The position numbers and the translations under genes were made by a program. Below the pieces are notes generated by a model. It was not told where the DNA came from, made no database searches, and saw only the letters and a program-made list of their open reading frames with translations. A DNA stretch of 14,741 nucleotides from a virus (Duplodnaviria > Heunggongvirae > Uroviricota > Caudoviricetes), in the IMG/VR virus record IMGVR_UViG_2657245664_000011. One strand, given 5' to 3'. This document shows positions 1-14,741 of the stretch, piece after piece. Within the stretch, counting starts at the first letter, position 1. Each line of letters begins with the position of its first letter.

Positions 1-1053
1 TTACGGGGTAATGCCAACCGCTGCCGCCACTTTGTCGCCACTTGGCAGCGTTGCCAGAGGATTGAAACGGAGCGCCGTTTCTAGATGATCCGGTGCCAGA
101 TGTGCGTAACGCATAGTCATTTTTATATCGTGGTGTCCGAGAATTTTTTGTAAGGCCAGAATGTTTCCACCCGACATCATGAAGTGCGCCGCAAACGTAT
201 GGCGCAGAACGTGTGTGAGTTGACCGCGAGGGAGCACGATAGACGTTTTTTCCATCACGGATAAAAATTGAAAATAGCAGTCTGTGAAGAAATTGAACCC
301 ATCAAGCGCCATGATCTCTTCGTAAAGCTCTTTACTGATAGGGATGCTTCTGTTTTTCTTCCCCTTCGTTCTGACAAAGGTAATTCGGTATTTGGTCACC
401 TGTGAGCGGGTAAGATTTACGGCTTCACGCCAGCGTGCGCCTGTGCTTAAGCATATCTTAACTACCAGTGCCAGAATTGGGTCCTGACGTTTGCAATCAG
501 CCAGCAATTCAACAATCTGCTCATGGGTAAGCCATGCCATCTCTTTTTCTGCGATGGTGAATTTTCGCATGTTCTCCAGTGGGTTCGGATACGACCATTC
601 GCCCAGACGGGATAGTTCGCTAAAAACACTACTTAGATAGCTTTGCTCCAGGTTAATGGTGACCGGGCTTGCTCCTTTCTTCCATTTCTCGCTGAAGTAG
701 ATCTCGCCTGTCAGGCGTTTATCTCGATAGTGGGCAAACATTTTAGAGGTGAGATCGGTTGCAAGAGGATTGCCCAGAGCGTCAACCATCAACAGCAATT
801 TGTCATAGACATGCTGCCCAGCTGTCAGAGATTTACCATGTAGTTTGAACCATAGCTCAACCACGTCTTTCAGTGTTCGACGATCCACTGATTCACCCAG
901 CCAGGGCTTTGCTTCGGTTTCTTCCATCGTGTGGCGCTCAAAAGCCAGTGCTTCGCCTTTGGTGGCGAATTGTTTACGCACACGACGCCCACTTCGTCCG
1001 GCGGGGTAACATTCGCAAAGCCATTTCCCTGTGGTTAGTTTTCGTACTGCCAT
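1..1053 (-). CDS. int: Tyrosine site-specific integrase, P2/186 family
   Basis: 350-aa ORF whose C-terminal region carries the tyrosine-recombinase signature (LRHTFA ... GHHDIKMTMRYAHL, with the catalytic Tyr). It sits at the prophage end, co-oriented with the repressor. The stop codon is at positions 1-3, so the gene is complete. Confidence 0.9.
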   Translation of the reverse strand: MAVRKLTTGKWLCECYPAGRSGRRVRKQFATKGEALAFERHTMEETEAKPWLGESVDRRTLKDVVELWFKLHGKSLTAGQHVYDKLLLMVDALGNPLATDLTSKMFAHYRDKRLTGEIYFSEKWKKGASPVTINLEQSYLSSVFSELSRLGEWSYPNPLENMRKFTIAEKEMAWLTHEQIVELLADCKRQDPILALVVKICLSTGARWREAVNLTRSQVTKYRITFVRTKGKKNRSIPISKELYEEIMALDGFNFFTDCYFQFLSVMEKTSIVLPRGQLTHVLRHTFAAHFMMSGGNILALQKILGHHDIKMTMRYAHLAPDHLETALRFNPLATLPSGDKVAAAVGITP

Positions 1054-1080
1054 AAAAAGCCCTCATATCAGAGGGCTAAA
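1054..1080 (-). terminator. Hairpin followed by a T-run immediately upstream of the int ATG; candidate intrinsic terminator for the cargo gene and/or an RBS-sequestering structure
   Basis: On the minus strand the sequence reads AGCCCTC-TGATAT-GAGGGCT-TTTTT-ATG (7-bp stem, 6-nt loop, T5). The GAGGG in the 3' arm is also the only plausible Shine-Dalgarno for int. Confidence 0.35.
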
Positions 1081-1135
1081 TTTAACTGTATATGTAACCA
1101 GTAATCAATGTGTGATTACTATGAAACATACATTG

Positions 1136-2812
1136 CTAAGCAACATGTAGTTCATCGTTGGCGGAAGTGGCTGCTTTGCGCTCCTGCTCAATAGCTAGAG
1201 ACTCTCTATATTCTTTCGCCTCTGCAAACATTGTCCAGTGGGCGTTGATGTTCATGTCTTCAATAACTGATTTGATTTCTTTTAAATTTACGTTAAAAAA
1301 CTCTTTTCGTGAGTTAATTTTATTGACCTGCTTTTCGTTGAAAACTTTATGCAGATGGTTTTCTAATGATGGTGCATCATCACTATAAATCATCGCATGA
1401 ACATCGAACGAAAAAGGAACACTAGCATCTCCGAGTTCACGAACACGATCAAGTGGTTCAAGGCGGCGTGTCATTCCAATTTTATATACATCTTCGCCAA
1501 ATGAACCAATATTACTAATGATATAGACGTGGCCTGATCTGGTTTGTTGAGCCATAGAAATAGCTCGTTGATTTTTAGCTTCAGCTTCTTCATATTTTAA
1601 CTGTAGTTCAGCTATTTTTTGCTCTAAAGCTAAGCGTTGTTCTTCATTTGCAAGCATAAGTTCTTTCGTTGCTTTATTTATAGCTTGCTGAATAGCTTTT
1701 TCTTCTTTTTCAGCTTCTTTTATCGCTTTTTCATATTCTCTACGAGCTCTTTCCTCTTCACGAAGCTGTTCTTTAATCCTTCTTTGCTCTTCTTTTTCTT
1801 CGAGCATAATTTCATTAACTGCTACACCCCATTTTAGCTCGTTGAGTCTTGCCTGAAGATAGATGTCACTTATTTTTGCGGACCTAAAGGCAGAGCCATT
1901 GTAATTTACTAGTTGAAATGCATCTTTTATTTCTTGGGAAAGTTTTCCAAAATTGTTGTGTTTGACTTTTGATAAAATACTGTCAACTCTTCCATTGAAG
2001 GCATCCAAAACAAAGTTTATGGCAGTATTACGCCTGTTTTGCTCAACATAATCACACGAAGCAGCTTTATTAGTTTTTATTAATGATTTGGTTAACTCTC
2101 TGGCTTTTTGTAATTCCTTGCCTGCATCTGTAAATTCATAATTTTCTGCCAGCTCATCAAGTACACTACGGTTAGGGATGATCCATTCATCACCATAACC
2201 TTCAATTTTATTTTTCATTGATTTTGCAACTGCTTCATATTTTTCTGCAAACTCTTTAGCTTCATATGCTGAACCAGCAATCTCCTTTGCTCTTTCTTCT
2301 GCATCAGAAATAATTTTTACTGCATTGTCATTAGCATTTGAGATTAGCTCATTTGCTTTATTATTAGCATTATCAAGACGTTCTTTGGCTTTCAGGCGTG
2401 CATCGCGAGCGTCTTTGGTGATTGCTATAGCTTCGCTATTAGCGTTGCTTATTGTCATCTGAGCTTGATAATTTGCTTCGTTTACTGTTTTAGCCGCCTT
2501 AATTTGGGCTTCATCTATTTTTTGCTTGGCTATTGAGTCCGCATTTTTTATCTTATTCTCTGCATCCATTACTGCGCTGTGCAATTCTTCGTATTGCCAC
2601 AATGGTGCTGCTCGCCCTTCAAGCTCTGATAATTCTCGTACGGTCTGTGCTAGTTTTTCTTGATTTTCAATCAGTTGGTTAGAAAGGGCTATGTTGTTAG
2701 CTGTCAGGTTATCTATAGCCGCTTTGTGTTTTTTACTTTGTTTAAATAATATTACAGCTAGAACAGGGGCGAGAAATGCTAATAAGAGTATAACGATGGC
2801 AAATGAATTCAT
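1136..2812 (-). CDS. Prophage cargo protein: N-terminal transmembrane anchor, long coiled coils, a central DUF4041-like region and a C-terminal T5orf172/GIY-YIG-like domain; candidate defense or exclusion factor
   Basis: 558-aa ORF with an AAGGA ribosome-binding site 7 nt upstream of the ATG. The N-terminus (FAIVILLLAFLAPVLAVILF) is a hydrophobic helix. Long K/E/A/N-rich heptad-like stretches follow. The C-terminus (GHVYIISNIGSFGEDVYKIGMTRRLEPLDRVRELGDASVPFSFDVHAMIYSDDAPSLENHLHKVFNEKQVNKINSRKEFFNVNLKEIKSVIE) matches the T5orf172 pattern as I recall it. The gene is visibly more AT-rich than the flanking phage genes. Confidence 0.8.
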   Translation of the reverse strand: MNSFAIVILLLAFLAPVLAVILFKQSKKHKAAIDNLTANNIALSNQLIENQEKLAQTVRELSELEGRAAPLWQYEELHSAVMDAENKIKNADSIAKQKIDEAQIKAAKTVNEANYQAQMTISNANSEAIAITKDARDARLKAKERLDNANNKANELISNANDNAVKIISDAEERAKEIAGSAYEAKEFAEKYEAVAKSMKNKIEGYGDEWIIPNRSVLDELAENYEFTDAGKELQKARELTKSLIKTNKAASCDYVEQNRRNTAINFVLDAFNGRVDSILSKVKHNNFGKLSQEIKDAFQLVNYNGSAFRSAKISDIYLQARLNELKWGVAVNEIMLEEKEEQRRIKEQLREEERARREYEKAIKEAEKEEKAIQQAINKATKELMLANEEQRLALEQKIAELQLKYEEAEAKNQRAISMAQQTRSGHVYIISNIGSFGEDVYKIGMTRRLEPLDRVRELGDASVPFSFDVHAMIYSDDAPSLENHLHKVFNEKQVNKINSRKEFFNVNLKEIKSVIEDMNINAHWTMFAEAKEYRESLAIEQERKAATSANDELHVA

Positions 2813-2832
2813 TTTAAAATCCTTTTACTATA

Positions 2833-3429
2833 TTAATTCGAGACTATTGTACTTCTTATACAAGCAACCACTTCAATATCAGAAAATGCACATTCAAAGC
2901 TATTCTCTGCTGTTGTAATTTTAATCATTCCTTTAGGAAGCCTTGTGATTTTTCGAATGGAATAGGTTCCGTCGATATTGATTAACCAGTTTCCATCAAG
3001 TACTTCAGAAAATTTTTGATCACAAATGTATGTGACGAGTCCATCCTGAACAACAATTGGTGATGAAAGGTTTGCAGGAAGAAATGATGAATCGAAGACA
3101 TATGAACCGTCTTCAATCATTTTGCCTGCGGCAAGGCGAAACTTAACAAGCTCTTCTGTAGCTGCTGTCAGCGAGCTTTGCTTAAGGCCTTGTCCGGTAG
3201 TTAACCATTTGAGGGAGGTTCCTGTTTCAAGAGCACATTGGATTATCCAGTCAGCAGGAAATGTATCCCGCAAATACCTGTTCGCTAGTGTGCTTTTTGA
3301 TACTTCCAAGTGATCAGCTAAAGCCTGTCGTGTCGTAAAGCCATAGGCTTCGACTAATCGCTCAATCGCAGCCTTACCACCTTTATTGGGATTTATTTTG
3401 ATCTCACTTGGGTACTTTGATGTTGACAT
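2833..3429 (-). CDS. cI: CI-like immunity repressor (phage 186 CI type, N-terminal HTH plus C-terminal oligomerisation domain)
   Basis: 198-aa ORF divergent from apl/cII. The N-terminal pattern EAYGFTTRQALADHL...LANRYLR...CALETG..LKWLTTGQG is the 186 CI-type HTH as I recall it. Position and length are close to 186 CI. Confidence 0.8.
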   Translation of the reverse strand: MSTSKYPSEIKINPNKGGKAAIERLVEAYGFTTRQALADHLEVSKSTLANRYLRDTFPADWIIQCALETGTSLKWLTTGQGLKQSSLTAATEELVKFRLAAGKMIEDGSYVFDSSFLPANLSSPIVVQDGLVTYICDQKFSEVLDGNWLINIDGTYSIRKITRLPKGMIKITTAENSFECAFSDIEVVACIRSTIVSN

Positions 3430-3451
3430 ATCTCTTTTGCGATCCTAGTAT
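3423..3451 (+). promoter_or_regulatory. Candidate early lytic promoter pR (sigma70)
   Basis: TTGACA at 3423-3428, a 17-bp spacer, then TAGTAT at 3446-3451. It faces apl/cII and overlaps the cI start codon, consistent with a 186-type switch. Confidence 0.55.
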
Positions 3452-3458
3452 CAGTTTT

Positions 3459-3474
3459 GTACCCAATTGGGTAC
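3459..3474. promoter_or_regulatory. Perfect 16-bp palindrome GTACCCAATTGGGTAC at the predicted pR start; candidate operator for CI or Apl
   Basis: Exact dyad symmetry read directly from the sequence. A TTGGGTAC half-site recurs at 3408-3415. Confidence 0.45.
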
Positions 3475-3524
3475 TTGTCACGATTACTACAGGCTCACCA
3501 CAAGCCAATAGGAGATGTTGCATC

Positions 3525-3746
3525 ATGACCCCTAACATTTCAATAACTCTGAATACGCCACACGTCACAATCGAGCGTTATAGCGAACTTACTGGTCTTT
3601 CAATCGACACAATCAACGATATGTTGGCGGATGGTCGCATTCCTCGGCATCGTCTTCGTAAAGACAAGAAAAGAGAAAAGGTAATGATCAACCTTGCTGC
3701 TCTTACCGTTGATGCACTTACTGATTGCAATGTTGTATTCAACTAG
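3525..3746 (+). CDS. apl: Apl/Cox-like excisionase and transcriptional regulator
   Basis: 73-aa ORF that is the first gene rightward of the switch. A small basic protein with an HTH-like segment ([29 protein letters not shown]). The ATG at 3525 is preferred over the upstream TTG of the ORF track because that extension would run through the promoter and into cI. Confidence 0.7.
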
Positions 3747-3778
3747 TTCCATTTTGGGATACATCAGAGGTGTCGACC

Positions 3779-4288
3779 ATGTTTGATTACCAAGTTTCCA
3801 AACATCCACATTTTGATGAAGCCTGTCGTGCATTCGCACTGCGCCACAATCTGGTGCAACTGGCAGAACGTGCGGGCATGAATGTGCAGATTCTGCGGAA
3901 CAAGCTGAACCCAGCTCAACCTCATTTATTAACCGCACCAGAAATCTGGCTGCTTACCGATCTGACTGAAGATTCAACGTTGGTAGATGGTTTTCTGGCA
4001 CAGATTCATTGTCTGCCATGTGTACCGATTAATGAGGTAGCAAAAGAGAAACTGCCGCATTACGTCATGAGCGCAACTGCAGAGATCGGGCGTGTTGCAG
4101 CAGGTGCGGTATCTGGTGATGTAAAAACTAGTGCCGGTCGTCGTGATGCTATCAGCAGCATTAACTCTGTAACACGACTGATGGCTCTGGCTGCTGTTTC
4201 ATTGCAAGCCCGTTTACAGGCTAATCCTGCGATGGCGAGTGCAGTTGATACCATGACTGGCCTTGGTGCTTCATTCGGTTTGCTGTGA
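3779..4288 (+). CDS. cII: CII-like activator of lysogeny establishment (186 CII type)
   Basis: ATG at 3779 with an AGAGG ribosome-binding site 8 nt upstream gives a 169-aa product starting [21 protein letters not shown], which closely resembles 186 CII as I recall it and matches its length. Confidence 0.8.
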
Positions 4289-4295
4289 GGTGTTT

Positions 4296-4592
4296 ATGCT
4301 GACGAAAGAACCATCATTTGCATCGCTGCTGGTAAAACAAAGCCCGGCAATGCACTACGGTCACGGCTGGATCACGGGTGAGGATGGAAAACGCTGGCAT
4401 CCATGTCATTCACAAGATGAATTGCTGTCTGAATTGACCACGAGGAAACGGAGAAAGTCCAAATGTATGCGGCAGAAAGTGAAGTGGTTTATCAGTTTCG
4501 TTACAGAGGGGAGAGTTATTCAGTACCTGAAGGTGATTTGCTCTGTTGCTATCCGTCATTGTCGGGCGATGGCAGTTACTTTTTCACGTTAA
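4296..4592 (+). CDS. Hypothetical early protein in the fil/dhr position
   Basis: ATG at 4296 with a GAGG ribosome-binding site. The N-terminal half looks protein-like, while the Cys/Arg-rich C-terminal third overlaps the next ORF and may not be translated as drawn. Confidence 0.4.
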   Translation: MLTKEPSFASLLVKQSPAMHYGHGWITGEDGKRWHPCHSQDELLSELTTRKRRKSKCMRQKVKWFISFVTEGRVIQYLKVICSVAIRHCRAMAVTFSR

Positions 4593-4687
4593 AGGATGGG
4601 ACGTTTTTACGGGGAGAGCAGGTTAAAGAGACGATACGAAAAAATGTATCTCCTCTTGAGCGTTACCGTAAGAACAAAGAACGATAG
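4463..4687 (+). CDS. Hypothetical early protein
   Basis: 74-aa ORF with a GGAG ribosome-binding site and natural-looking composition. It overlaps the preceding ORF by about 130 nt in another frame. Confidence 0.5.
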   Translation: MYAAESEVVYQFRYRGESYSVPEGDLLCCYPSLSGDGSYFFTLKDGTFLRGEQVKETIRKNVSPLERYRKNKER

Positions 4688-4709
4688 CTGCGTTTGGGGG
4701 ATATGAAGT

Positions 4710-5051
4710 ATGGCAATTAATGGCGCTGCAGCAACTGTTCCATTAAGCCCCGGTGAACGCCTGAATGGACTTAATCACATTGCGGAGTTAAGGGCGAAAG
4801 TTTTTGGCCTGAATATTGAGTCAGAGCTTGAGCGGTTTATTAAAGATATGCGTGATCCACGGGATATCAATAATGAACAAAATAAACGGGCACTGGCTGC
4901 CATATTCTTTATGGCAAAAATTCCAGCTGAACGTCATAGCATCAGCATTAATGAGCTGACCACTGACGAAAAGCGGGAGCTGATTAAAGCAATGAATCAT
5001 TTTCGTGCAGTGGTGAGCTTATTTCCCAGACGGCTAACCATGCCGAATTAA
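4710..5051 (+). CDS. Hypothetical early protein
   Basis: 113-aa ORF co-oriented in the early operon with a G-rich ribosome-binding site upstream. Confidence 0.55.
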   Translation: MAINGAAATVPLSPGERLNGLNHIAELRAKVFGLNIESELERFIKDMRDPRDINNEQNKRALAAIFFMAKIPAERHSISINELTTDEKRELIKAMNHFRAVVSLFPRRLTMPN

Positions 5052-5118
5052 CCAACTAATGAAATTAATGGCGTAAACCCGCCGGGCATCCCTTTATCTA
5101 AATTCAGGAGAATTGATT

Positions 5119-5352
5119 ATGCGTAATATTGAAACCCTCACGACTAAAACCGGACCGGATGACGCAGGGCTTAATATTTTACTGACAGAGGCTCGTCTGG
5201 AAGAACGCCGGGCAAGGGCTGAAGCAATGGCTGCTCGCCTTGATAGCCTGGCGTGTCATATCTCATCCCGCCAGCTAAACCACGTGGAAGCGGCAGAACT
5301 GCTGCGCGTGACTGCTGAAGCAATCCAGAACGAAGCGCAGGAGATCCACTAA
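5119..5352 (+). CDS. Hypothetical early protein
   Basis: AGGAG ribosome-binding site 8 nt upstream of the ATG at 5119. Its stop overlaps the next start (TAATG), suggesting translational coupling. Confidence 0.5.
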   Translation: MRNIETLTTKTGPDDAGLNILLTEARLEERRARAEAMAARLDSLACHISSRQLNHVEAAELLRVTAEAIQNEAQEIH

Positions 5353-5579
5353 TGGCTGATGCAATGGATCTCGTACAGCAGCGCGTTGAAGAAGAACGCC
5401 AGCGCCATATCCGTGCAGCCCGTGCCAAATCACCGGGCGTGTCACGCGTACTTTGCATTGAATGTGAAGCGCCAATTCCGCCAGCACGACGCCGCGCCAT
5501 TCCGGGAGTGCAGCTTTGCATTACCTGTCAGGAAATCGCAGAACTGAAAGGCAAACATTACAACGGAGGTGCTGTATGA
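5352..5579 (+). CDS. TraR/DksA-family C4 zinc-finger protein
   Basis: 75-aa ORF with CIECEAPIP...CITCQ, two CxxC pairs at the spacing typical of phage TraR-like proteins. Confidence 0.7.
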   Translation: MADAMDLVQQRVEEERQRHIRAARAKSPGVSRVLCIECEAPIPPARRRAIPGVQLCITCQEIAELKGKHYNGGAV

Positions 5580-6433
5580 GCACCATCCTGAAATGGGCGG
5601 GAAATAAAACCGCCATTATGCCAGAACTGAAAAAATACCTTCCTGCTGGCCCGCGACTGGTTGAACCTTTCGCGGGTTCCTGTGCTGTGATGATGGAAAC
5701 GGATTATCCCAGCTATCTGGTTGCGGATATTAATCCTGATTTAATCAACCTCTATAAAAAGGTTGCCGCTGATTGTGAATCGTTTATATCTCGCGCCAGA
5801 GTTTTATTTGAGATCGCAAACAGGGAGGTGGCTTATTACAACATAAGGCAGGAGTTTAACTGCTCAACTGAAATTACTGATTTCATGAAAGCGGTATATT
5901 TCCTGTATCTCAATCGTCACGGTTACCGTGGTTTATGTCGCTATAACAAGAGCGGGCATTTCAACATTCCCTACGGTAATTATAAAAATCCGTATTTCCC
6001 TGAAAAAGAACTTCGCACATTTGCAGAAAAAGCCCAGCGAGCAACGTTTATCTGCGCCAGCTTTGATGAAACGCTGGCGATGTTGAAGGCGGGAGATGTG
6101 GTGTATTGCGATCCGCCATATGACGGTACGTTTTCCGGCTATCACACTGATGGTTTCACTGAAGATGACCAGTATCACCTGGCATCCGTTCTTGAACATC
6201 GGTCATCAGAAGGACATCCGGTCATTGTTTCTAACAGTGACACATCCCTGATCCGTTCGCTGTATCGCAATTTTACTCACCACTATATCAAGGTAAAACG
6301 CAGCATCGGTGTGGCAGCTGGCGAGGGTAAATCAGCAACAGAAATCATTGCTGTTTCCGGGCCGCGCTGCTGGATGGGATTTGATTATTCGCGTGGCGTG
6401 GATAGTTCTGCCGTGTACGGAGTACGTGCATGA
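5576..6433 (+). CDS. dam: Dam-family N6-adenine DNA methyltransferase (orphan, phage-encoded)
   Basis: ATG at 5576 with a GGAGG ribosome-binding site. Carries ILKWAGNK, an AdoMet-binding motif (EPFAGSCAV) and the catalytic DPPY. Start and stop overlap the neighbours as ATGA, so it is translationally coupled between the TraR-like gene and gene A. Confidence 0.85.
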
Positions 6434-7956
6434 GTCATGCCGATATGAACAACTGCTGCGGCTTTAACGAGGCTGCCGCAGCATTCTCATGGAACAGCCC
6501 GAAAAAGGCCATTAACCCTTATCTGGACCCGGCGGAAGTTGCGCCGGTTTCTACGCTTTCAAACCTGATCACTCTGTACGCTGCCGATAACGAGCAGGAA
6601 CAGTTGCGCCGCGAGGCACTGAGTGATCAGGTCTGGGAGCGTTATTTCTTTAATGAATCACGTGATCCTGTCCAGCGCGAAATGGAGCAGGATAAGCTCA
6701 TTAGCCGGGCAAAGCTGGCGCATGAGCAGCAGCGTTTTAATTCAGACATGGTCATTCTGGCGGACGTCAACGCCCAGCCTTCCCATATCAGCAAGCCGCT
6801 GATGCAACGTATTGAATACTTCAGCAGCCTGGGCAGGCCAAAGGCTTATTCCCGCTATTTACGTGAGACGATTAAGCCATGTCTGGAACGACTGGAGCAT
6901 GTACGCGACAGTCAGCTATCTGCATCTTTTCGCTTTATGGCAAGCCATGAAGGGCTGGACGGCCTGCTGATCCTGCCTGAAATGAGTCAGGATCAGGTGA
7001 AACGCCTGTCCACCTTGGTAGCTGCGCATATGAGTATGTGCCTTGATGCAGCTTGTGGTGATTTGTATGCCACCGATGACGTTAAGCCAGAAGAAATCCG
7101 CAAGACATGGGAAAAGGTGGCAGCGGAAACCCTGCGTCTGGATGTCATCCCACCTGCGTTTGAGCAACTCCGTCGGAAAAGAAACCGCCGTAAACCCGTG
7201 CCGTATGAACTCATTCCGGGTTCGCTGGCGCGTATGTTGTGCGCCGACTGGTGGTATCGGAAATTATGGAAGATGCGTTGCGAATGGCGGGAAGAGCAGT
7301 TGCGCGCTGTTTGCCTGGTCAGCAAAAAAGCATCTCCTTATGTCAGCTATGAAGCCGTGATGCATAAACGTGAGCAGCGCCGTAAGTCGCTGGAGTTTTT
7401 CCGTTCTCATGAACTGGTGAACGAAGACGGCGACACGCTGGACATGGAGGATGTGGTAAACGCCAGCAGCAGCAACCCTGCGCATCGCCGCAATGAGATG
7501 ATGGCCTGTGTTAAAGGTCTGGAGCTTATCGCGGAAATGCGCGGTGACTGCGCCGTTTTCTACACTATCACCTGTCCGTCGCGTTTCCATTCCACGCTAA
7601 ATAACGGCAGACCAAACCCGACCTGGACAAACGCGACGGTAAGACAAAGCAGCGATTATCTGGTCGGCATGTTTGCTGCATTTCGTAAGGCGATGCACAA
7701 AGCCGGGTTGCGCTGGTATGGCGTGCGGGTGGCTGAGCCGCATCATGATGGCACAGTTCACTGGCACCTGTTGTGTTTCATGCGCAAAAAAGACCGCCGT
7801 GCCATCACTGCATTACTGCGTAAGTTTGCCATCCGTGAAGACCGCGAGGAGCTGGGCAATAACACTGGGCCGCGCTTTAAGTCTGAGTTGATTAAGCACT
7901 GTGTGTCAGGCTGGATGGCGTGGAAAAATAGGTTTGTCGCCATTTTTTGTGAATAG
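6430..7956 (+). pseudogene. A: Replication initiation endonuclease gpA (rolling-circle HUH type), C-terminally truncated
   Basis: 508-aa ORF containing the HUH motif (TVHWHLLCF). It ends in a short atypical tail that overlaps the inverted terminase fragment. P2/186 A proteins are about 700-760 aa, so the C-terminal part is missing. Confidence 0.75.
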
Positions 7957-8764
7957 CCATACCGGAAGCCACTTTGCGCAGCTCCTGGAATTTCGGTATC
8001 CAGAAATATTCATCCAGATACAGGTTGCCGTGGTAACTCTGGGCCGTGCGGGCATTGGTGCCGAGGAAGTACAGCGTGGCCCCGTTAGGAAGCACCATCG
8101 GATCGCCTTTCAGCTCCACCTCCACTTCTTTGGCGAAGTCGATGATGTACTGCTTAAAGACGTGGGCCTGAGCCTTGCTGGCGGAAAGGAAAATCTGGTT
8201 ACGCCCGGTTAGCAGGGCGTCAATCAGGGCTTCACGGGCAAAATAGAAGGTCGCGCCGATCTGGCGTGACTTCAGCAGGTTGCGGATGCGGTTGGTTTTT
8301 CCGGCTTCCCACCAGTGGCGCTGGTAGTTGAACATGGAGGAATGGAAGATTTCTTCCAGCTTCTCAATCTGTTCATCGGTGAAAACGTTCTTTTCCGGCT
8401 GACGGCGCGGGCCTTTGTTGCGGTTGGCGACGTTAGGGTTTAAGTCGGCTTCGTTGCCGCCATTGTTAAACTTGCCGATCCGCGCATGGCGCTCCGACTG
8501 GCGCGCCAGCAGGTCAATCTCTTTGAAATCTTTCCCTTCTTTGTGCTCCTTCATAATGAGCTGGCAGTAGCGTGCGGCGGTGGTGAGCTGCATCTGATCC
8601 AGCGGCCCATAGTCACCCCACTTGTCGCGTTTTTTCCAGCTGTGAACGGTTGCAACTTTCTCGCCCAGCATTTCAGCAATGCGGGCTACGCGGTATCCCT
8701 GAAAGTACAGCAGCATGGCCTGCCGACGGGGATCGAGATCTGCGGGTGTCAGTGTGGTGTTCAT
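7892..8764 (-). pseudogene. P: Terminase ATPase (large subunit) gpP, N-terminal fragment only
   Basis: 290-aa ORF with P2 gpP-like N-terminus and Walker-type motifs ([24 protein letters not shown]). A full gpP is about 590 aa, and the nuclease half is absent. Its orientation is opposite to gene A, as in P2. Confidence 0.8.
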
Positions 8765-8813
8765 GGCACAAACCTACAGCCTTGAATGAAGGCTTTCCCC
8801 GCCTGCGGTTTGT

Positions 8814-9998
8814 GTGGTTGCGGGTTTACTTACTGCACCGTTGTCATCTTTGCGCCGCACGGCATCACTGACGGGAAATGTCATGAAAACTGTAGCAGGT
8901 GCGCCGGTTGCACTTTTGCGGTCTGGATTATCCGGTTTACGTGCTGTTGCTGTGATGTTTATGAATCCTCTGGCGGTACTGCGCGGTGGACTGGTCGCCG
9001 CAGGCACGGTGCTGCGAGTACTGGCATCTGGTCCACTGGCGATGCTGCGCGTTGCCCTGTATGCCGTATCTGGTCTGTTAGGTGCTCTGCTCAGTCCGAT
9101 AGGTCTTGTGGTTACTGCACTGGCGGGCGTGGCGCTGGTTGTCTGGAAATACTGGCAACCCATCACCGCATTTCTTGGTGGCGTGGTGGAAGGATTCAAA
9201 GCGGCGGCAGGTCCCGTCAGTGCAGCATTCGAACCACTTAAGCCTGTGTTTCAGTGGATTGGCGACAAAGTGCAGGCGCTCTGGGGCTGGTTTACTGATC
9301 TGCTGACGCCCGTTAAGTCGACCTCTGCCGAACTGCAGAGCGCAGCGGCAATGGGGCGACGATTCGGGGAGGCACTGGCGGAAGGGCTGAATATGGTTAT
9401 GCATCCGCTGGACTCCCTGAAATCTGGCGTTTCCTGGTTGCTGGATAAACTCGGCATTGTCAGTAAAGAGGCTGCAAAGGCGAAACTGCCGGAAAGCGTG
9501 ACGCGTCAGCAACCTGCGACGGTGAATGCAGACGGTAAAGTGATGATGCCATCGGGTGGTTTTCCGTCATGGGGATATGGCTTTGCGGGGATGTATGACA
9601 GCGGCGGCTATATCCCGCGTGGGCAGTTTGGCATCGTCGGTGAAAACGGGCCGGAAATTGTTAACGGCCCGGCAAATGTGACCAGCCGGAGAAATACAGC
9701 TGCACTGGCTGCCGTTGTTGCCGGAATGATGGGCGTTGCTGCCGCGCCAGCAGAGCTTCCACCGTTGCACCCTTTGGCACTTCCCGCGAAAGGTGGAGAA
9801 GCAATTGTGAGTCGCGCAGCCACTGTGCCGCTCGTTCAACGGATTGAGGCACCGACGCAGATCATCATTCAGACGCAGCCAGGACAAAGTGCGCAGGATA
9901 TTGCGCGGGAGGTGGCACGCCAGCTTGATGAACGTGAACGCAGGCTGAAGGCAAAAGCCAGGAGTAACTACAGCGATCAGGGGGGATACGACGCATGA
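8814..9998 (+). pseudogene. T: Tail tape measure protein gpT, C-terminal fragment
   Basis: 394-aa G/A/L-rich ORF whose stop overlaps the gpU start (ATGA). The frame opens only at 8790, a few bases from the terminase fragment start, and the first possible start is a GTG. P2 gpT is about 815 aa. Confidence 0.7.
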
Positions 9999-10480
9999 TG
10001 ATGGTGCTGGGATTGTACGTGTTTATGCTGCGCACCGTTCCGTATCAGGAACTGCAGTATCAACGCAGCTGGCGACATGCGGCAAACAGCCGGGTAAACC
10101 GTCGTCCGTCCACGCAGTTTCTGGGACCGGAAAACGACATGCTGACGCTTTCCGGTGTTCTTATGCCGGAGATAACAGGCGGCAGGCTGTCGTTGCTGGC
10201 ACTGGAGCAGATGGCAGAACAGGGGAAAGCATGGCCCCTGATTGAAGGCAGCGGCACGATTTACGGCATGTATGTGATTGAGGGACTGAATCAGACTAAA
10301 ACGGAGTTTTTCCGCGACGGTATGCCGCGCAGGATTGAGTTCACCCTTTCGCTAAAACGGGTGGATGAATCCCTGTCCGATATGTTCGGTGATCTCAGTA
10401 CTCAACTGAATAATCTGCAGGACACGGCAACGTCTGCCTTAAGCGATATCAGTAAAACGGTGGGAGGGCTGCTGTCGTGA
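9995..10480 (+). CDS. U: Tail protein gpU
   Basis: 161-aa ORF in the T-U-D order, coupled to T upstream and D downstream. Its size matches P2 gpU. Confidence 0.85.
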   Translation: MMMVLGLYVFMLRTVPYQELQYQRSWRHAANSRVNRRPSTQFLGPENDMLTLSGVLMPEITGGRLSLLALEQMAEQGKAWPLIEGSGTIYGMYVIEGLNQTKTEFFRDGMPRRIEFTLSLKRVDESLSDMFGDLSTQLNNLQDTATSALSDISKTVGGLLS

Positions 10481-11577
10481 ATTTCAGCTCTGAACTGCTT
10501 AACAAAGGAAACAAAACTCCCGCATTCAGCATCAGTATTGAGGGGAAGGATATCACCACTGTGCTGGATAACCGCCTGATGAGTCTGACGCTGACGGACA
10601 ATCGGGGCTTTGAAGCGGACCAACTTGATCTGGAGCTGGACGACGCCGACGGAAAAATCGTGCTGCCGCGCCGTGGTGCGGTCATTACGCTGGCGCTGGG
10701 CTGGAAGGGGCAGCCGCTTTTCCCGAAAGGGGCATTCACGGTGGACGAGATTGAACACACTGGCGCACCGGACCGCCTGACTATCCGGGCGCGAAGTGCT
10801 GATTTTCGGGAAACGCTGAATACCCGCCGTGAAAAATCGTGGCATAACACCACCATCGGGGAAGTGGTGAAGGAAATAGCCGCGCGGCACAAGCTGAAGA
10901 TGGCACTGGGTAAAGACCTGTCGGATAAGCCCGTGGAGCATATAGACCAGACTAATGAGAGTGACGGCAGTTTTTTGATGCGGCTGGCGCGCCAGTACGG
11001 TGCCATTGCATCGGTGAAAAATGGCAATCTGTTATTCATCCGGCAGGGACAGGGCAAAAGCGCCAGCGGTAAACCACTGCCGGTGATTACTATCACACGT
11101 AAGGACGGCGACAGTCACCGCTTTACCCTGGCAGATCGCGGAGCTTACACGGGGGTAATTGCCAGCTGGTTGCATACCCGCGAACCCGCGAAGAAAGAAA
11201 GCACTACGGTGAAGCGTAAGCGCAGGACTAAGAAGCAGAAGAAAGAGCCGGAAGCGAAGCAGGGCGATTACCTGGTGGGGACGGATGAAAACGTGCTGGT
11301 ACTTAATCGCACTTATGCCAACCGGAGCAACGCTGAACGGGCAGCGAAAATGCAGTGGGAACGCCTGCAACGCGGCGTTGCGTCATTCTCGCTACAACTG
11401 GCGGAAGGGCGGGCAGATCTCTACACGGAAATGCCAGTGAAAGTCAGTGGCTTTAAACAGCCGATAGATGATGCGGAATGGAGCATTACGACTCTGACGC
11501 ATACCGTCAGCCCGGATAACGGTTTTACGACCAGTCTGGAGCTTGAAGTGAGGATTGATGATTTCGAAATGGAATGA
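10477..11577 (+). CDS. D: Tail protein gpD
   Basis: 366-aa ORF with a GTG start overlapping the U stop. It occupies the P2 D position immediately before ogr. Confidence 0.85.
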   Translation: MNFSSELLNKGNKTPAFSISIEGKDITTVLDNRLMSLTLTDNRGFEADQLDLELDDADGKIVLPRRGAVITLALGWKGQPLFPKGAFTVDEIEHTGAPDRLTIRARSADFRETLNTRREKSWHNTTIGEVVKEIAARHKLKMALGKDLSDKPVEHIDQTNESDGSFLMRLARQYGAIASVKNGNLLFIRQGQGKSASGKPLPVITITRKDGDSHRFTLADRGAYTGVIASWLHTREPAKKESTTVKRKRRTKKQKKEPEAKQGDYLVGTDENVLVLNRTYANRSNAERAAKMQWERLQRGVASFSLQLAEGRADLYTEMPVKVSGFKQPIDDAEWSITTLTHTVSPDNGFTTSLELEVRIDDFEME

Positions 11578-11667
11578 TTCTTCGCAATGGAGAACTTTTA
11601 AGTTTGCAAAATGGAATAATGCGGTATCATTATTGTGAATTTAGCAAAAATGGGGAGAACTCGAAAA

Positions 11668-11886
11668 ATGATGATTTGCCCACTGTGTGGAAGTGCCGCC
11701 CATACTCGCAGCAGTTTTCAGGTATCTTCATTGACCAAAGAGCGTTACAACCAGTGCCAGAACATTAACTGCAGCCATACTTTTGTTACCCATGAAACTT
11801 TTGTTCGTTCGATTGCAACGCCAAAAGAGTCAAATCCGGTTCAGCCGCATCCAATGAAATCAGGACAGGTGGCGCTCTCTCTTTGA
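11668..11886 (+). CDS. ogr: Ogr/Delta-family zinc-finger late transcription activator
   Basis: 72-aa product MMICPLCGSAAHTRSS...QCQNINCSHTF with the CxxC-(22)-CxxxxC arrangement of P2 Ogr and 186 B. A GGGGAG ribosome-binding site lies upstream. Confidence 0.85.
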   Translation: MMICPLCGSAAHTRSSFQVSSLTKERYNQCQNINCSHTFVTHETFVRSIATPKESNPVQPHPMKSGQVALSL

Positions 11887-11972
11887 CGCTGCCGCCATTT
11901 TGTCGCCATCGTTAAAAAACAGTGCTTCTAACATCATGATTTTAAACAGCATAAATTTCAGGCAACAAAAAA

Positions 11973-12009
11973 CCCATCAACCTTGAACCGAAATGGCGGG
12001 GTTGATGGG
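11973..12009. other. Inverted repeat CCCATCAACC / GGTTGATGGG (10-bp stem, 17-nt loop) in the ogr-ybjL intergenic region; possible terminator or part of attR
   Basis: Read directly from the sequence. It lies between convergent ogr (+) and ybjL (-) at the expected prophage-chromosome boundary. Confidence 0.3.
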
Positions 12010-12121
12010 CTCCACAAAATGGGGACATCAAAGAAAAGCAGTGGCACTAATTAAGACTGATGCCCTGCGGAAAAGTTCTGCGGTTGTGCAAAAAAATTTC
12101 ATTTTCAGGGCAACTTCAGTT

Positions 12122-13807
12122 TTATCCTAATCCTGGCCATACCATGACGATGATTGTCCCTGCCAGCGTCAGCAGGACGTTGGCGATTGCATAGGTGCCC
12201 GCATAGCCCAGCGCCGGGATGTTACTGCGAGCTGTATCACTGATGATCTCCATTGCCGGCGCGCAGGTACGTGCGCCCATCATTGCGCCGAACAACAGCG
12301 CGCGGTTCATTCGCAATACATAAGCACCGAACAAGAAACAGATAACCACGGGCACCAGACTGACAATCAATCCGGCAATCAACATCTGACCGCCAATCGC
12401 GCCCAGGCCGTTATTAATACCGCTACCGGCGCTCAGACCAACGCCTGCCATAAACACCATCAAGCCGAACTCTTTCACCATGCTTAATGCACCCTGCGGA
12501 ATGTAACCGAAGGTCGGGTGGTTAGCACGCATAAAGCCCAGCATAATTCCGGCGAATAACAACCCGGCAGCGTTCCCCATGCCGAAACTGAATGTGCTGA
12601 ACTGGAAGGTGATCATCCCGATCATCAGCCCAATAACAAAGAAGGCGCAGAATGCCAGCAGGTCAGTGACCTGGCTGTGAATCGAGATAAAGCCGATGCG
12701 ATCGGCGATGGTTTTTACGCGGCGGGCATCGCCGCTGACTTGTAAAACGTCACCTTTGTTAAGCACGACGTTGTCATCTATCGGCATCTCAATCTGGCTA
12801 CGAATGACGCGGTTAAGGAAGCAACCGTGATCGGTCAACTTCAGTTGTGCGAGACGTTTACCTACAGCGTTATGGTTTTTAACGACCACTTCTTCAGTGA
12901 CGATACGCATGTCGAGAAGGTCACGATCGAAAACTTCTTTACCGTTACGGAAGCTGGGATCGAGTCGGGCATGGGCGTCGGGATAGCCTACCAACGCTAT
13001 TTCATCGCCCATTTGTAGCACGGCATCACCGTCTGGATTTGCCAGAATCCCGTTACGTCGAATACGTTCAATGTAGCAGCCGGTTTGTCGATAAATACCC
13101 AGTTCACGCAGATTTTTGCCGTCGGTCCAGGCCACCAGTTCCGGGCCGACGCGATAGGCGCGGATCACCGGTAAATAAACCTTACGGTTGGCATCAGTGT
13201 CCAGGCCACGTTCGCGGGCGATTTGCTGGGCGCTGGTCTGTAAGTCCTGATGCTGCAATTTCGGCAAGTAACGCGCACCAACAATCAAACTCACCAGACC
13301 GATTAAATAGGTTAAGGCATACCCGAGGCTCAGATTATCCAGTGCCAGTGAGAGCTGCCTGCTTTCCATGCCGGAATGACGCAGTGTATCGCCAGCACCG
13401 ACCAGAACCGGTGTCGACGTCATAGAGCCTGCTAACATACCGGCCGTCAGGCCAATATCCCAGCCAAACAGCTTACCTAACCCTAAGGCGATCACCAGCG
13501 CACTGCCAACCATCACCAGTGCTAACATTAGGTAATTTTTCCCATCGCGAAAAAAAATGGAAAAAAAGTTCGGTCCGGCTTCGACCCCGACGCAGAAAAT
13601 AAACAGCATAAAGCCAAGATTAAGCGCATCGGTGTTAATGCTGAAATGTTGTTGGCCTAATAACAGCGATACGACTAAAACGCCAATGGAATTACCCAGT
13701 TGGATCGAACCAAGTCGTAACTTTCCGAGACATAGCCCAAGCGCGAGGACCACAAATAATAACAGAATGTAATTCCCATTTAACAATTCGGCGACGTTTA
13801 TATTCAC
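12122..13807 (-). CDS. ybjL: Putative transport protein YbjL (AAE-family permease with TrkA-C-like domains)
   Basis: 561-aa polytopic membrane protein whose sequence matches E. coli YbjL as I recall it. Neighbour order ybjL-ybjM-grxA matches the E. coli chromosome. Confidence 0.9.
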
Positions 13808-14076
13808 GGAGGCTAACTTCTTGTTTACTAGTAAGCTGTTGAAAGAAATGGTAATTTACGATAATGTTTTTTACCAGAATTCAGGGCGCAGATTCATTCA
13901 GCGCACCTAAACGATAGTAAAGTAACAATATATTTTACTAGTGTAATCACATTAGGTATCAACGGCTATATGAATTGCGTTGGCCTATATTAGCATGGAA
14001 TGCGAAGCGGCTTTATCTTACTGAACGCCACACTGGCGAAAAATGTGTTCGATAGACGCAGTGTCAGGAGGAACGA

Positions 14077-14454
14077 GTGAAACATAAACAACGTTGGGCG
14101 GGGGCAATCTGCTGTTTTGTCCTCTTCATTGTGGTGTGCCTTTTTCTGGCGACGCACATGAAAGGCGCTTTTCGGGCTGCCGGGCATCCTGAAATCGGCT
14201 TGCTATTTTTCATTCTTCCTGGAGCAGTCGCCAGCTTCTTTTCACAGCGTAGAGAAGTCCTGAAACCTCTGTTTGGCGCAATGCTGGCGGCACCCTGTTC
14301 GATGCTCATTATGCGGCTGTTTTTTTCACCGACGCGCTCATTCTGGCAAGAGCTGGCATGGTTACTAAGCGCGGTGTTCTGGTGTGCGCTGGGGGCACTG
14401 TGTTTCTTATTTATCAGTAGTTTGTTTAAACCACAGCACAGAAAAAATCAGTAA
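14077..14454 (+). CDS. ybjM: Inner membrane protein YbjM
   Basis: 125-aa hydrophobic ORF with a GTG start and an AGGAGG ribosome-binding site 5 nt upstream. Conserved position between ybjL and grxA. Confidence 0.8.
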   Translation: MKHKQRWAGAICCFVLFIVVCLFLATHMKGAFRAAGHPEIGLLFFILPGAVASFFSQRREVLKPLFGAMLAAPCSMLIMRLFFSPTRSFWQELAWLLSAVFWCALGALCFLFISSLFKPQHRKNQ

Positions 14455-14474
14455 AGCCCTCAACGCGAGGGCTT
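14454..14474. terminator. Bidirectional intrinsic terminator hairpin between convergent ybjM and grxA
   Basis: AAGCCCTC-AACGC-GAGGGCTT (8-bp GC-rich stem, 5-nt loop) with A/T runs on both sides. Confidence 0.5.
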
Positions 14475-14483
14475 GTCAGACGA

Positions 14484-14741
14484 TCAGGCGTCCAGATTTT
14501 CTTTCACCCATGCAGCAAAATCGGTATAGCCGCCGATATGTTGCTGATCGACAAAAATCTGCGGCACGGTTTCTACGGGTTTACCTGCCTTTTGTTGTAG
14601 ATCTTCTTTAGTGATCCCTTCCGCACGAATATCTACATACTGATACTGAAAATCATCGCGTTCATTGCTCAATTTCTCAGCCAGATCTTTTGCACGCACA
14701 CAGTAAGGGCAACCCGAACGACCAAAAATAACGGTTTGCAT
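14484..14741 (-). CDS. grxA: Glutaredoxin 1
   Basis: 85-aa ORF MQTVIFGRSGCPYCVRAKDLAEKLS... with the CPYC active site, matching E. coli GrxA. It starts exactly at the window end. Confidence 0.95.
   Translation of the reverse strand: MQTVIFGRSGCPYCVRAKDLAEKLSNERDDFQYQYVDIRAEGITKEDLQQKAGKPVETVPQIFVDQQHIGGYTDFAAWVKENLDA

Follow-up and report, generated by a model that had tools for sequence, protein, structure and literature searches.

Position and origin of a late-gene deletion joint in a decayed P2/186-like prophage at the rcdA–ybjL site of Escherichia coli

In a 14,741-nt stretch of viral DNA (the window, taken here at its full length), the minus-strand terminase gene P starts at 8762–8764, and only 26 nt beyond its start codon a plus-strand frame opens that encodes part of the tape-measure protein T. 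How did these two genes come to lie side by side, and what happened to the late genes that separate them in an intact P2-like prophage? The original prediction, made from the letters alone, read the pair as a deletion joint. The terminase start, the neighbouring T-like frame and its GTG start were all as it had described them, and we traced the joint through complete E. coli genomes that carry the same prophage in intact and decayed forms.

The element and its relatives

The window holds a decayed P2/186-like (Peduoviridae) prophage of E. coli, inserted between rcdA and ybjL. Its order is rcdA, int ... ogr, ybjL, with the integrase at one edge, ogr at the other and conserved host genes outside (Table 1). 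In a BLAST search of phage records, the sequence to the right of window 8820 aligned with the 3' portion of T and then with U and D in Peduoviridae of Klebsiella and Escherichia, at 96–98% identity. Escherichia phage 500465-1 (Peduoviridae, Wadgaonvirus) is about 95% identical to the window and is collinear with it on both sides of the joint.

A search of 5,426 complete E. coli genomes identified strain CPE35 (NZ_CP075722.1), which matches window positions 7893–10600 at 100%. The identity extends over the whole window, in two pieces (1–7895 and 7893–14741). Numbered along the CPE35 locus (L001), window 4841–7895 is L001 1–3055 and window 7893–14741 is L001 9001–15849, both at 100%. In CPE35 a full-length terminase gene is followed by an incomplete tape-measure gene, U, D, ogr and the host gene ybjL. 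The joint between P and T, which we call the second junction, is identical in the two remnants, but CPE35 still has full-length A, its cargo genes, portal Q and full-length P, whereas the window carries an additional, first junction.

The same rcdA–ybjL site is occupied by an intact prophage, referred to below as L007, in E. coli 11899A_LBHALD (NZ_CP130447.1). The cargo, portal, terminase, U, D and ogr proteins of L007 and CPE35 are identical, and between the DinI-like gene and the joint, a distance of about 5.3 kb, the nucleotide sequences show 0 mismatches. Since there are no mismatches around either breakpoint, L007 is the effective parent for this region. Compared with it, the window is short of 15,766 bp (O to mid-T) and 5,948 bp (the 3' end of A to mid-P). 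The early and immunity region of the window is a different allele from that of L007 and carries an additional gene, PD-Lambda-1. In the comparison of L001 1–4576 with L007, the CPE35/window prophage is a mosaic, identical to the 11899A prophage rightwards of the DinI-like gene but with an early region 2–5% diverged and a different immunity module; this pattern implies recent recombination between P2-like prophages.

The PD-Lambda-1-type gene encodes a 558-aa DUF4041/T5orf172 protein that matches the PADLOC model for this system with E = 2.4e-120. The intact relative in 11899A_LBHALD has no PD-Lambda-1 gene at that position. The remnant thus retains a probable defence gene together with its immunity.

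Table 1. Features of the window, late-promoter dyads of the intact prophage L007 and left breakpoints shared by remnants. Positions refer to the window or to L007, as marked.
Feature	Position	Strand	Evidence or remark
Integrase, attL end	window 1..1053	-	Pfam Int_N, Phage_integrase; 'phage integrase' in CPE35, 100% identical; rcdA just beyond in CPE35
PD-Lambda-1-type anti-phage defence gene (probable), between int and CI	window 1136..2812	-	Pfam DUF4041, T5orf172, MUG113
186-type CI immunity repressor	window 2833..3429	-	Pfam Phage_CI_repr, Phage_CI_C; annotated likewise in CPE35
Truncated replication endonuclease A'	window 6430..7956	+	Pfam Phage_GPA over residues 188-489
P', terminase ATPase subunit, N-terminal 290 codons (full length 588 aa)	window 7892..8764	-	Pfam Terminase_5, Terminase_6N
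First junction, 3-nt overlap TAA	window 7893-7895	.	5,948 bp missing relative to CPE35
Retained P-O intergenic DNA, 56 of 142 nt	window 8765..8820	.	identical to L007 22814-22869
T', 3' 1,178 nt of tape-measure gene T, pseudogene	window 8821..9998	+	100% identical to L007 38636-39813
Tail gene U, intact	window 9995..10480	+	Pfam Phage_P2_GpU; WP_000980416.1, accession common to CPE35 and intact prophage
Tail/baseplate hub gene D, intact	window 10477..11577	+	Pfam Phage_GPD; WP_047609445.1 in CPE35 and intact prophage
ogr/B-type zinc-finger late activator, intact	window 11668..11886	+	Pfam Ogr_Delta; CPE35 annotation
Host gene ybjL, attR side	window 12122..13807	-	CPE35 annotation
Late-promoter dyad, P-O	L007 22860 (22860-22877, 18 nt)		TGTGTGGTTGTCGGTACA
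Late-promoter dyad, upstream of V	L007 28768		TGTATCAGCACTGATACA
Late-promoter dyad, upstream of FI	L007 34461		TGTGTGAATAACGGTACA
Shared left end	L007 22868/9		CPE35 and window, joined to 38635; GF31, to 37806; M9682-C1, to 41280
Shared left end	L007 21736		three remnants
Shared left end	L007 23757		three remnants
Shared left end	L007 21942-4		two remnants (VE-V10-F, EC261); also right end of the window's first junction
Shared left end	L007 23032/3		two remnants
Shared left end	L007 23734/6		two remnants
Shared left end	L007 35574		two remnants

Anatomy of the second junction

The joint lies between window positions 8820 and 8821. On its left, window 7893–8820 equals L007 21942–22869 (928 nt, 0 mismatches), of which L007 21942–22813 corresponds to the fragment of P; on its right, window 8819–13054 equals L007 38634–42869 (4,236 nt, 0 mismatches). 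The two alignments overlap by 2 nt of microhomology, TG, at window 8819–8820, and TG is present at both parental breakpoints (L007 22868–22869 and L007 38634–38635). The left parent reads ...GTGTGGTTG followed by TCGG, the right parent reads ...CAACGCTG followed by CGGGTTTAC, and the remnant passes from ...GTGTGGTTG straight into CGGGTTTAC. The missing DNA is one clean block of 15,766 bp (L007 22870–38635). Two parental positions are directly joined, and filler DNA, mobile elements and repeats are all absent at the second junction.

Because both flanks are collinear with an intact prophage and 100% identical to it, the joint is not a chance arrangement. With an intact P2-like prophage matched on either side, the predicted removal of everything between the P–O region and the middle of T is borne out. 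The joint had been sought within 8765–8813, however, and is found 7 nt to the right of that interval, which is itself parental P–O intergenic DNA. We are highly confident that the second junction is the scar of a single, microhomology-associated 15,766-bp deletion inside a P2/186-like prophage. One break fell in the middle of the late-promoter dyad that separates P from the divergently transcribed O, the other at codon 633/634 of T. The ends were joined across the TG identity, a signature that points to illegitimate, microhomology-associated joining (slippage or end-joining) as the probable pathway.

The right flank begins inside a gene. Intact T in L007 is 3,078 nt long (1,025 codons), and the remnant, T', keeps residues 634–1025 (392 codons), with the first 1,900 nt gone. 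What abuts the terminase start is thus the C-terminal part of the tape measure, as predicted, but it amounts to 38% of the protein and not to half. The frame that contains T' opens at 8790, after a TGA at 8787–8789, and its first start-type codon is the GTG at 8814, from which the ORF runs to 9998. This GTG is fortuitous: the first two codons of the ORF (GTG GTT) are derived from the junction and come from the parental P–O intergenic DNA. By eye we saw no ribosome-binding site upstream of it; no plus-strand promoter-like site was found near the second junction, and a Pfam search of T' returned no domain. RefSeq (PGAP) annotates T' in CPE35 as a pseudogene, 'incomplete; missing N-terminus'. T' is a dead fragment without a native start. 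It is not a naturally short, complete T-like protein, since it is base for base the 3' end of full-length T and is annotated as a pseudogene.

Genes and promoters lost, and the order of the two deletions

The second junction took with it 25 complete genes (CDSs), from scaffold O through the tail genes E/E'. Among the genes lost are those for scaffold, capsid, head completion and the small terminase subunit, along with X; the lysis genes (holin, lysozyme, LysA-like, LysB and LysC); R, S, V, W, J, I, H and G; and sheath, tube, E and E'. The invertible fibre segment and its invertase are also gone. The predicted list of missing genes therefore holds from scaffold to tube, but where P2 has the Z/fun locus this lineage has an invertase and a fibre shufflon. 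In L007 the deleted invertible segment is flanked by two probable crossover sites for the fibre invertase, at 32292–32317 and 33765–33790. Against a hix/gix-type consensus, TTCTCGCATACCTTGGTTTGGGAGAA scores 19/20 and its weaker partner 15/20.

Essential morphogenesis and lysis genes are absent from the window. Judging from this gene content and from the single location of our probe in CPE35 (see below), we would not expect particle production on induction.

The promoters went with the genes. In P2 the late operons PQ, ONMLKRS, VWJIHG and FI-FII-E-E'-T-U-D need Ogr and TGT-N12-ACA promoters (PMC3931495), and in L007 exactly one TGT-N12-ACA dyad lies in each of the three late intergenic regions (Table 1). 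Of the 18-nt P–O dyad, the window keeps the left 10 nt, TGTGTGGTTG, at positions 8811–8820. The second junction splits this dyad at its centre and deletes the other two, so that 0/3 parental dyads are intact in the window. With all three lost, Ogr, although still encoded, would have no intact target dyad, and T'-U-D would have lost the promoter P_F, leaving U, D and ogr stranded with no late promoter. P would likewise have been deprived of its upstream activator site before it was truncated. T'-U-D is predicted to be transcriptionally silent, though the genes may be expressed by read-through from elsewhere. The sole dyad-like site left near the joint is a TGT-N12-ACA match, TGTGGTGTTCATGGCACA, at window 8753–8770, which overlaps the P start codon and is also present in the parent (L007 22802). 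With about seven TGT-N12-ACA matches expected per prophage, this one probably arose by chance.

At the first junction A has lost its 3' end and P its 3' half; the DinI-like gene, four cargo ORFs and portal Q are gone altogether, presumably together with the cos region, which we place by P2-type gene order. Full-length A has 805 aa, with an HxH motif at 444–446 and a YxxxY motif at 498–502; the break at residue 489 separates HxH from the catalytic tyrosines. The A' ORF of 508 aa consists of about 489 residues of A followed by about 20 codons of antisense terminase (P) sequence, and this read-through makes it a chimera. The original prediction had listed immunity, integration, early genes, U, D and ogr as kept. 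This stands for all except the early genes, which survive only in part, with A cut short.

The second junction is the older of the two and the first came later, since CPE35 has the second without the first and matches the window at 100% everywhere else. That later 5,948-bp loss deprived the element of portal Q, of half of P and of the part of A that holds the catalytic residues, and presumably of cos as well. On its gene content, the element is predicted to be unable to replicate, to package DNA, to build particles or to be packaged by a helper phage. Both deletions spared int, CI immunity and the PD-Lambda-1 defence gene. Taken by itself, the joint documents one E. coli lineage disarming a P2-like prophage, with the lysis and virion genes going first and the replication and packaging genes next. 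For annotation, T', P' and A' should be treated as pseudogenes, and the element as one that, by its gene content, would be neither inducible nor mobilizable. We also considered a P4-like satellite or a tailocin module and rejected both: A is truncated, the cos region, placed as above, is gone, and the only tail genes are T', U and D.

Other accounts of the joint have to be set against a single deletion. An assembly or scaffolding artefact, in which late genes present in the strain were collapsed or misjoined, is a general possibility for draft assemblies alone, and the source genome of the window lay outside the complete genomes searched. The joint nevertheless occurs base for base in the closed CPE35 chromosome, with a clean 2-nt microhomology and no repeat. 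Moreover, a probe that fuses the Q-P region to U-D-ogr has only one location in CPE35, so that the late genes are not carried by a second such prophage there. With the joint in a closed genome and a single probe location, the idea that the missing genes lie elsewhere or were lost in assembly fails, and we consider an artefact extremely improbable. Equally improbable is a designed, naturally reduced element, be it a satellite-like island or a gene for a natural short T-like protein. The retention of int, immunity, a defence gene and ogr does loosely resemble domesticated or satellite elements. Against this, T' starts in mid-gene behind two junction-derived codons and no ribosome-binding site was visible by eye; of P and A only fragments remain, cos is deleted, and an intact parent of identical sequence exists. 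The exact joint is also present in just 1/5,426 complete genomes (CPE35), which marks it as recent and private, not as an architecture that has been conserved.

A two-step origin is very unlikely as well. In this scenario a deletion like that of strain GF31 came first, and a second one then trimmed T' back to the present joint. GF31 has exactly the same left breakpoint, with its right end 830 bp further left and 2,010 nt of T kept. Its sequence, however, differs at 14/301 nt directly to the right of the joint and by about 5% elsewhere, and it carries other cargo (retron St85). In the window and in CPE35, both flanks match the intact prophage at 100%, so CPE35 does not descend from a GF31-type remnant; a second deletion would, in addition, have had to restart at the identical nucleotide. 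A single deletion thus remains our reading. It is recent, given zero substitutions relative to the intact relative, and it represents ordinary prophage decay, an event of an already known kind. The cryptic ('grounded') prophages of E. coli, such as DLP12, e14, Rac and Qin, have decayed by deletion while keeping immunity and accessory genes (PMC6379469). These belong to lambdoid or other lineages and are old, unlike the deletion in the window.

Recurrent breakpoints among remnants at the rcdA–ybjL site

We retrieved 22 further remnants, nearly all of which could be placed at the same site by the flanking ybjL; the sample consists of complete genomes pulled out by the one Q-P/U-D-ogr probe. In thirty-nine genomes one location covered at least 80% of this probe, with its two halves then within about 2.9 kb of each other, and the best 60 probe records include many more partial cases. 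GF31, the W5-6 group, NCTC9041, M9682-C1 and about 20 more have, like the window, lost the late block and kept the ends and defence cargo. Each has its own pair of breakpoints, and that of the window belongs to the CPE35 lineage alone. At 25 other junctions the overlaps are mostly 2–11 nt, with 1 nt in one, none in one and unmatched DNA in three. Short overlaps at most of these junctions indicate that microhomology joining is the common mode of decay. The joints of L008 (UMNF18) and L021 (504239) contain 11–12 nt of filler DNA and no microhomology, which suggests that these deletions arose by more than one joining route.

Across the 23 remnant types at the rcdA–ybjL site, the very same nucleotide is repeatedly used as a breakpoint, each time joined to another partner (Table 1). 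Twelve pairs of left ends fall within 2 nt of each other among the 23 main left ends, where 0.3 are expected and the maximum in 100,000 simulation runs was 6. Right ends recur at L007 38895 and 41271–41281. Remnants that share a breakpoint differ from one another by 8–19 substitutions per ~300 nt of flank and also in their cargo, so these are independent events and not inheritance. The left breakpoint of the second junction is among those reused, in GF31 and M9682-C1. We argue that the position of this break was therefore non-random, as plain random recombination does not predict such reuse. The shared left end at L007 21942–4 lies inside P, and the remnants in VE-V10-F and EC261 are unrelated to that of the window. 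At the distinct junction sites the dinucleotide is TA or TG in 19/39 cases, against a background of 12%, with the caveat that paired left and right sites are not independent.

What could produce such recurrence? We rejected shared descent, because the flanks of remnants sharing a breakpoint are as divergent as those of random pairs. Pseudo-sites of the fibre invertase, a candidate source of the 2-nt junction identities, were likewise set aside: breakpoints score 2–5/20 in register against the hix/gix-type consensus, which is within background, and do not resemble the real crossover sites, so that only the 2-nt identity fits. The best k-mers at recurrent sites were within the background range and gave no common motif. 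No hot spot had a significant hairpin or cruciform (DNA folding z-scores of -1.2 to +1.4); the L007 22869 site falls within the loop of a weak dyad hairpin. The region contains no Chi, and Chi-like sites are unrelated to the breakpoints, which speaks against Chi-arrested RecBCD resection. Joining at an A-protein (rolling-circle nickase) origin or pseudo-origin would be a further candidate; the P2 nick sequence has no match in this A gene. The recurrence is accordingly not accounted for by invertase pseudo-sites, shared descent, motifs, hairpins or Chi. A pattern scan for more junctions at the 22869 left site found nothing in metagenome contigs, and in species-representative genomes it matched only twice, both times by chance and in an unrelated contig.

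We lean slightly toward the view that the deletion was directed, that is, that L007 22869 is one of a few break-prone sites in P2-like prophages at which a site-preferring process repeatedly starts the loss of the late region. Candidates for that process would be a topoisomerase or gyrase that prefers to cleave there, a site that is bound by protein or at which pausing occurs, and a nuclease or recombinase. Such a view competes with the randomness of the break and not with the deletion itself. It draws on the excess of coincident left ends, 12 pairs against 0.3, on their pairing with different right-hand partners, on the diverged flanks and differing cargo that mark independent events, and on the TA/TG preference at junction sites. 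The lack of a motif above background, of significant hairpins, of any resemblance to invertase sites and of Chi counts against it, as do a sample made up of complete genomes from one probe and a dinucleotide test in which left and right sites are not independent. A more specific proposal, which we offer tentatively, is that the centre of the P–O dyad is a nucleotide-precise deletion hot spot, one of few in P2/186-like prophages, which would point to a specific break-and-join process that disarms them. Independent lineages could then be losing their late genes there, with varying partners and a T-purine (TA/TG) bias, while the ends and defence cargo are spared. Preferential cleavage of the topoisomerase or gyrase type, a pause site bound by protein, or a nuclease of phage or host origin might conceivably underlie it.

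Defective P2-like elements with conserved defence genes have been described (NAR 2026 gkag898, PMC13586616), and the remnants here fit that picture. That study reports no obvious pattern among the core genes that have been inactivated, and it makes no mention of recurrent breakpoints. If anything about the locus might surprise a specialist, it is only that its left breakpoint recurs in independent lineages. If it holds in a systematic survey, domestication at the rcdA–ybjL site would not be just random deletion plus selection; decay would be channelled through preferred break sites.

The remnants also vary in what they carry. The portal-proximal cargo, just upstream of Q, differs in every one of them (L004–L006 and L008–L026), and the late genes are gone in all. 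This cargo includes retron St85, a KAP NTPase with DprA, TIGR02391, an S8 peptidase, HIRAN, PIN and TIR proteins, as well as AIPR, DUF262, DUF4435, a STAS-like protein, the PtuB of retron Ec78 and others. The window's own portal-proximal cargo was lost with its first junction.
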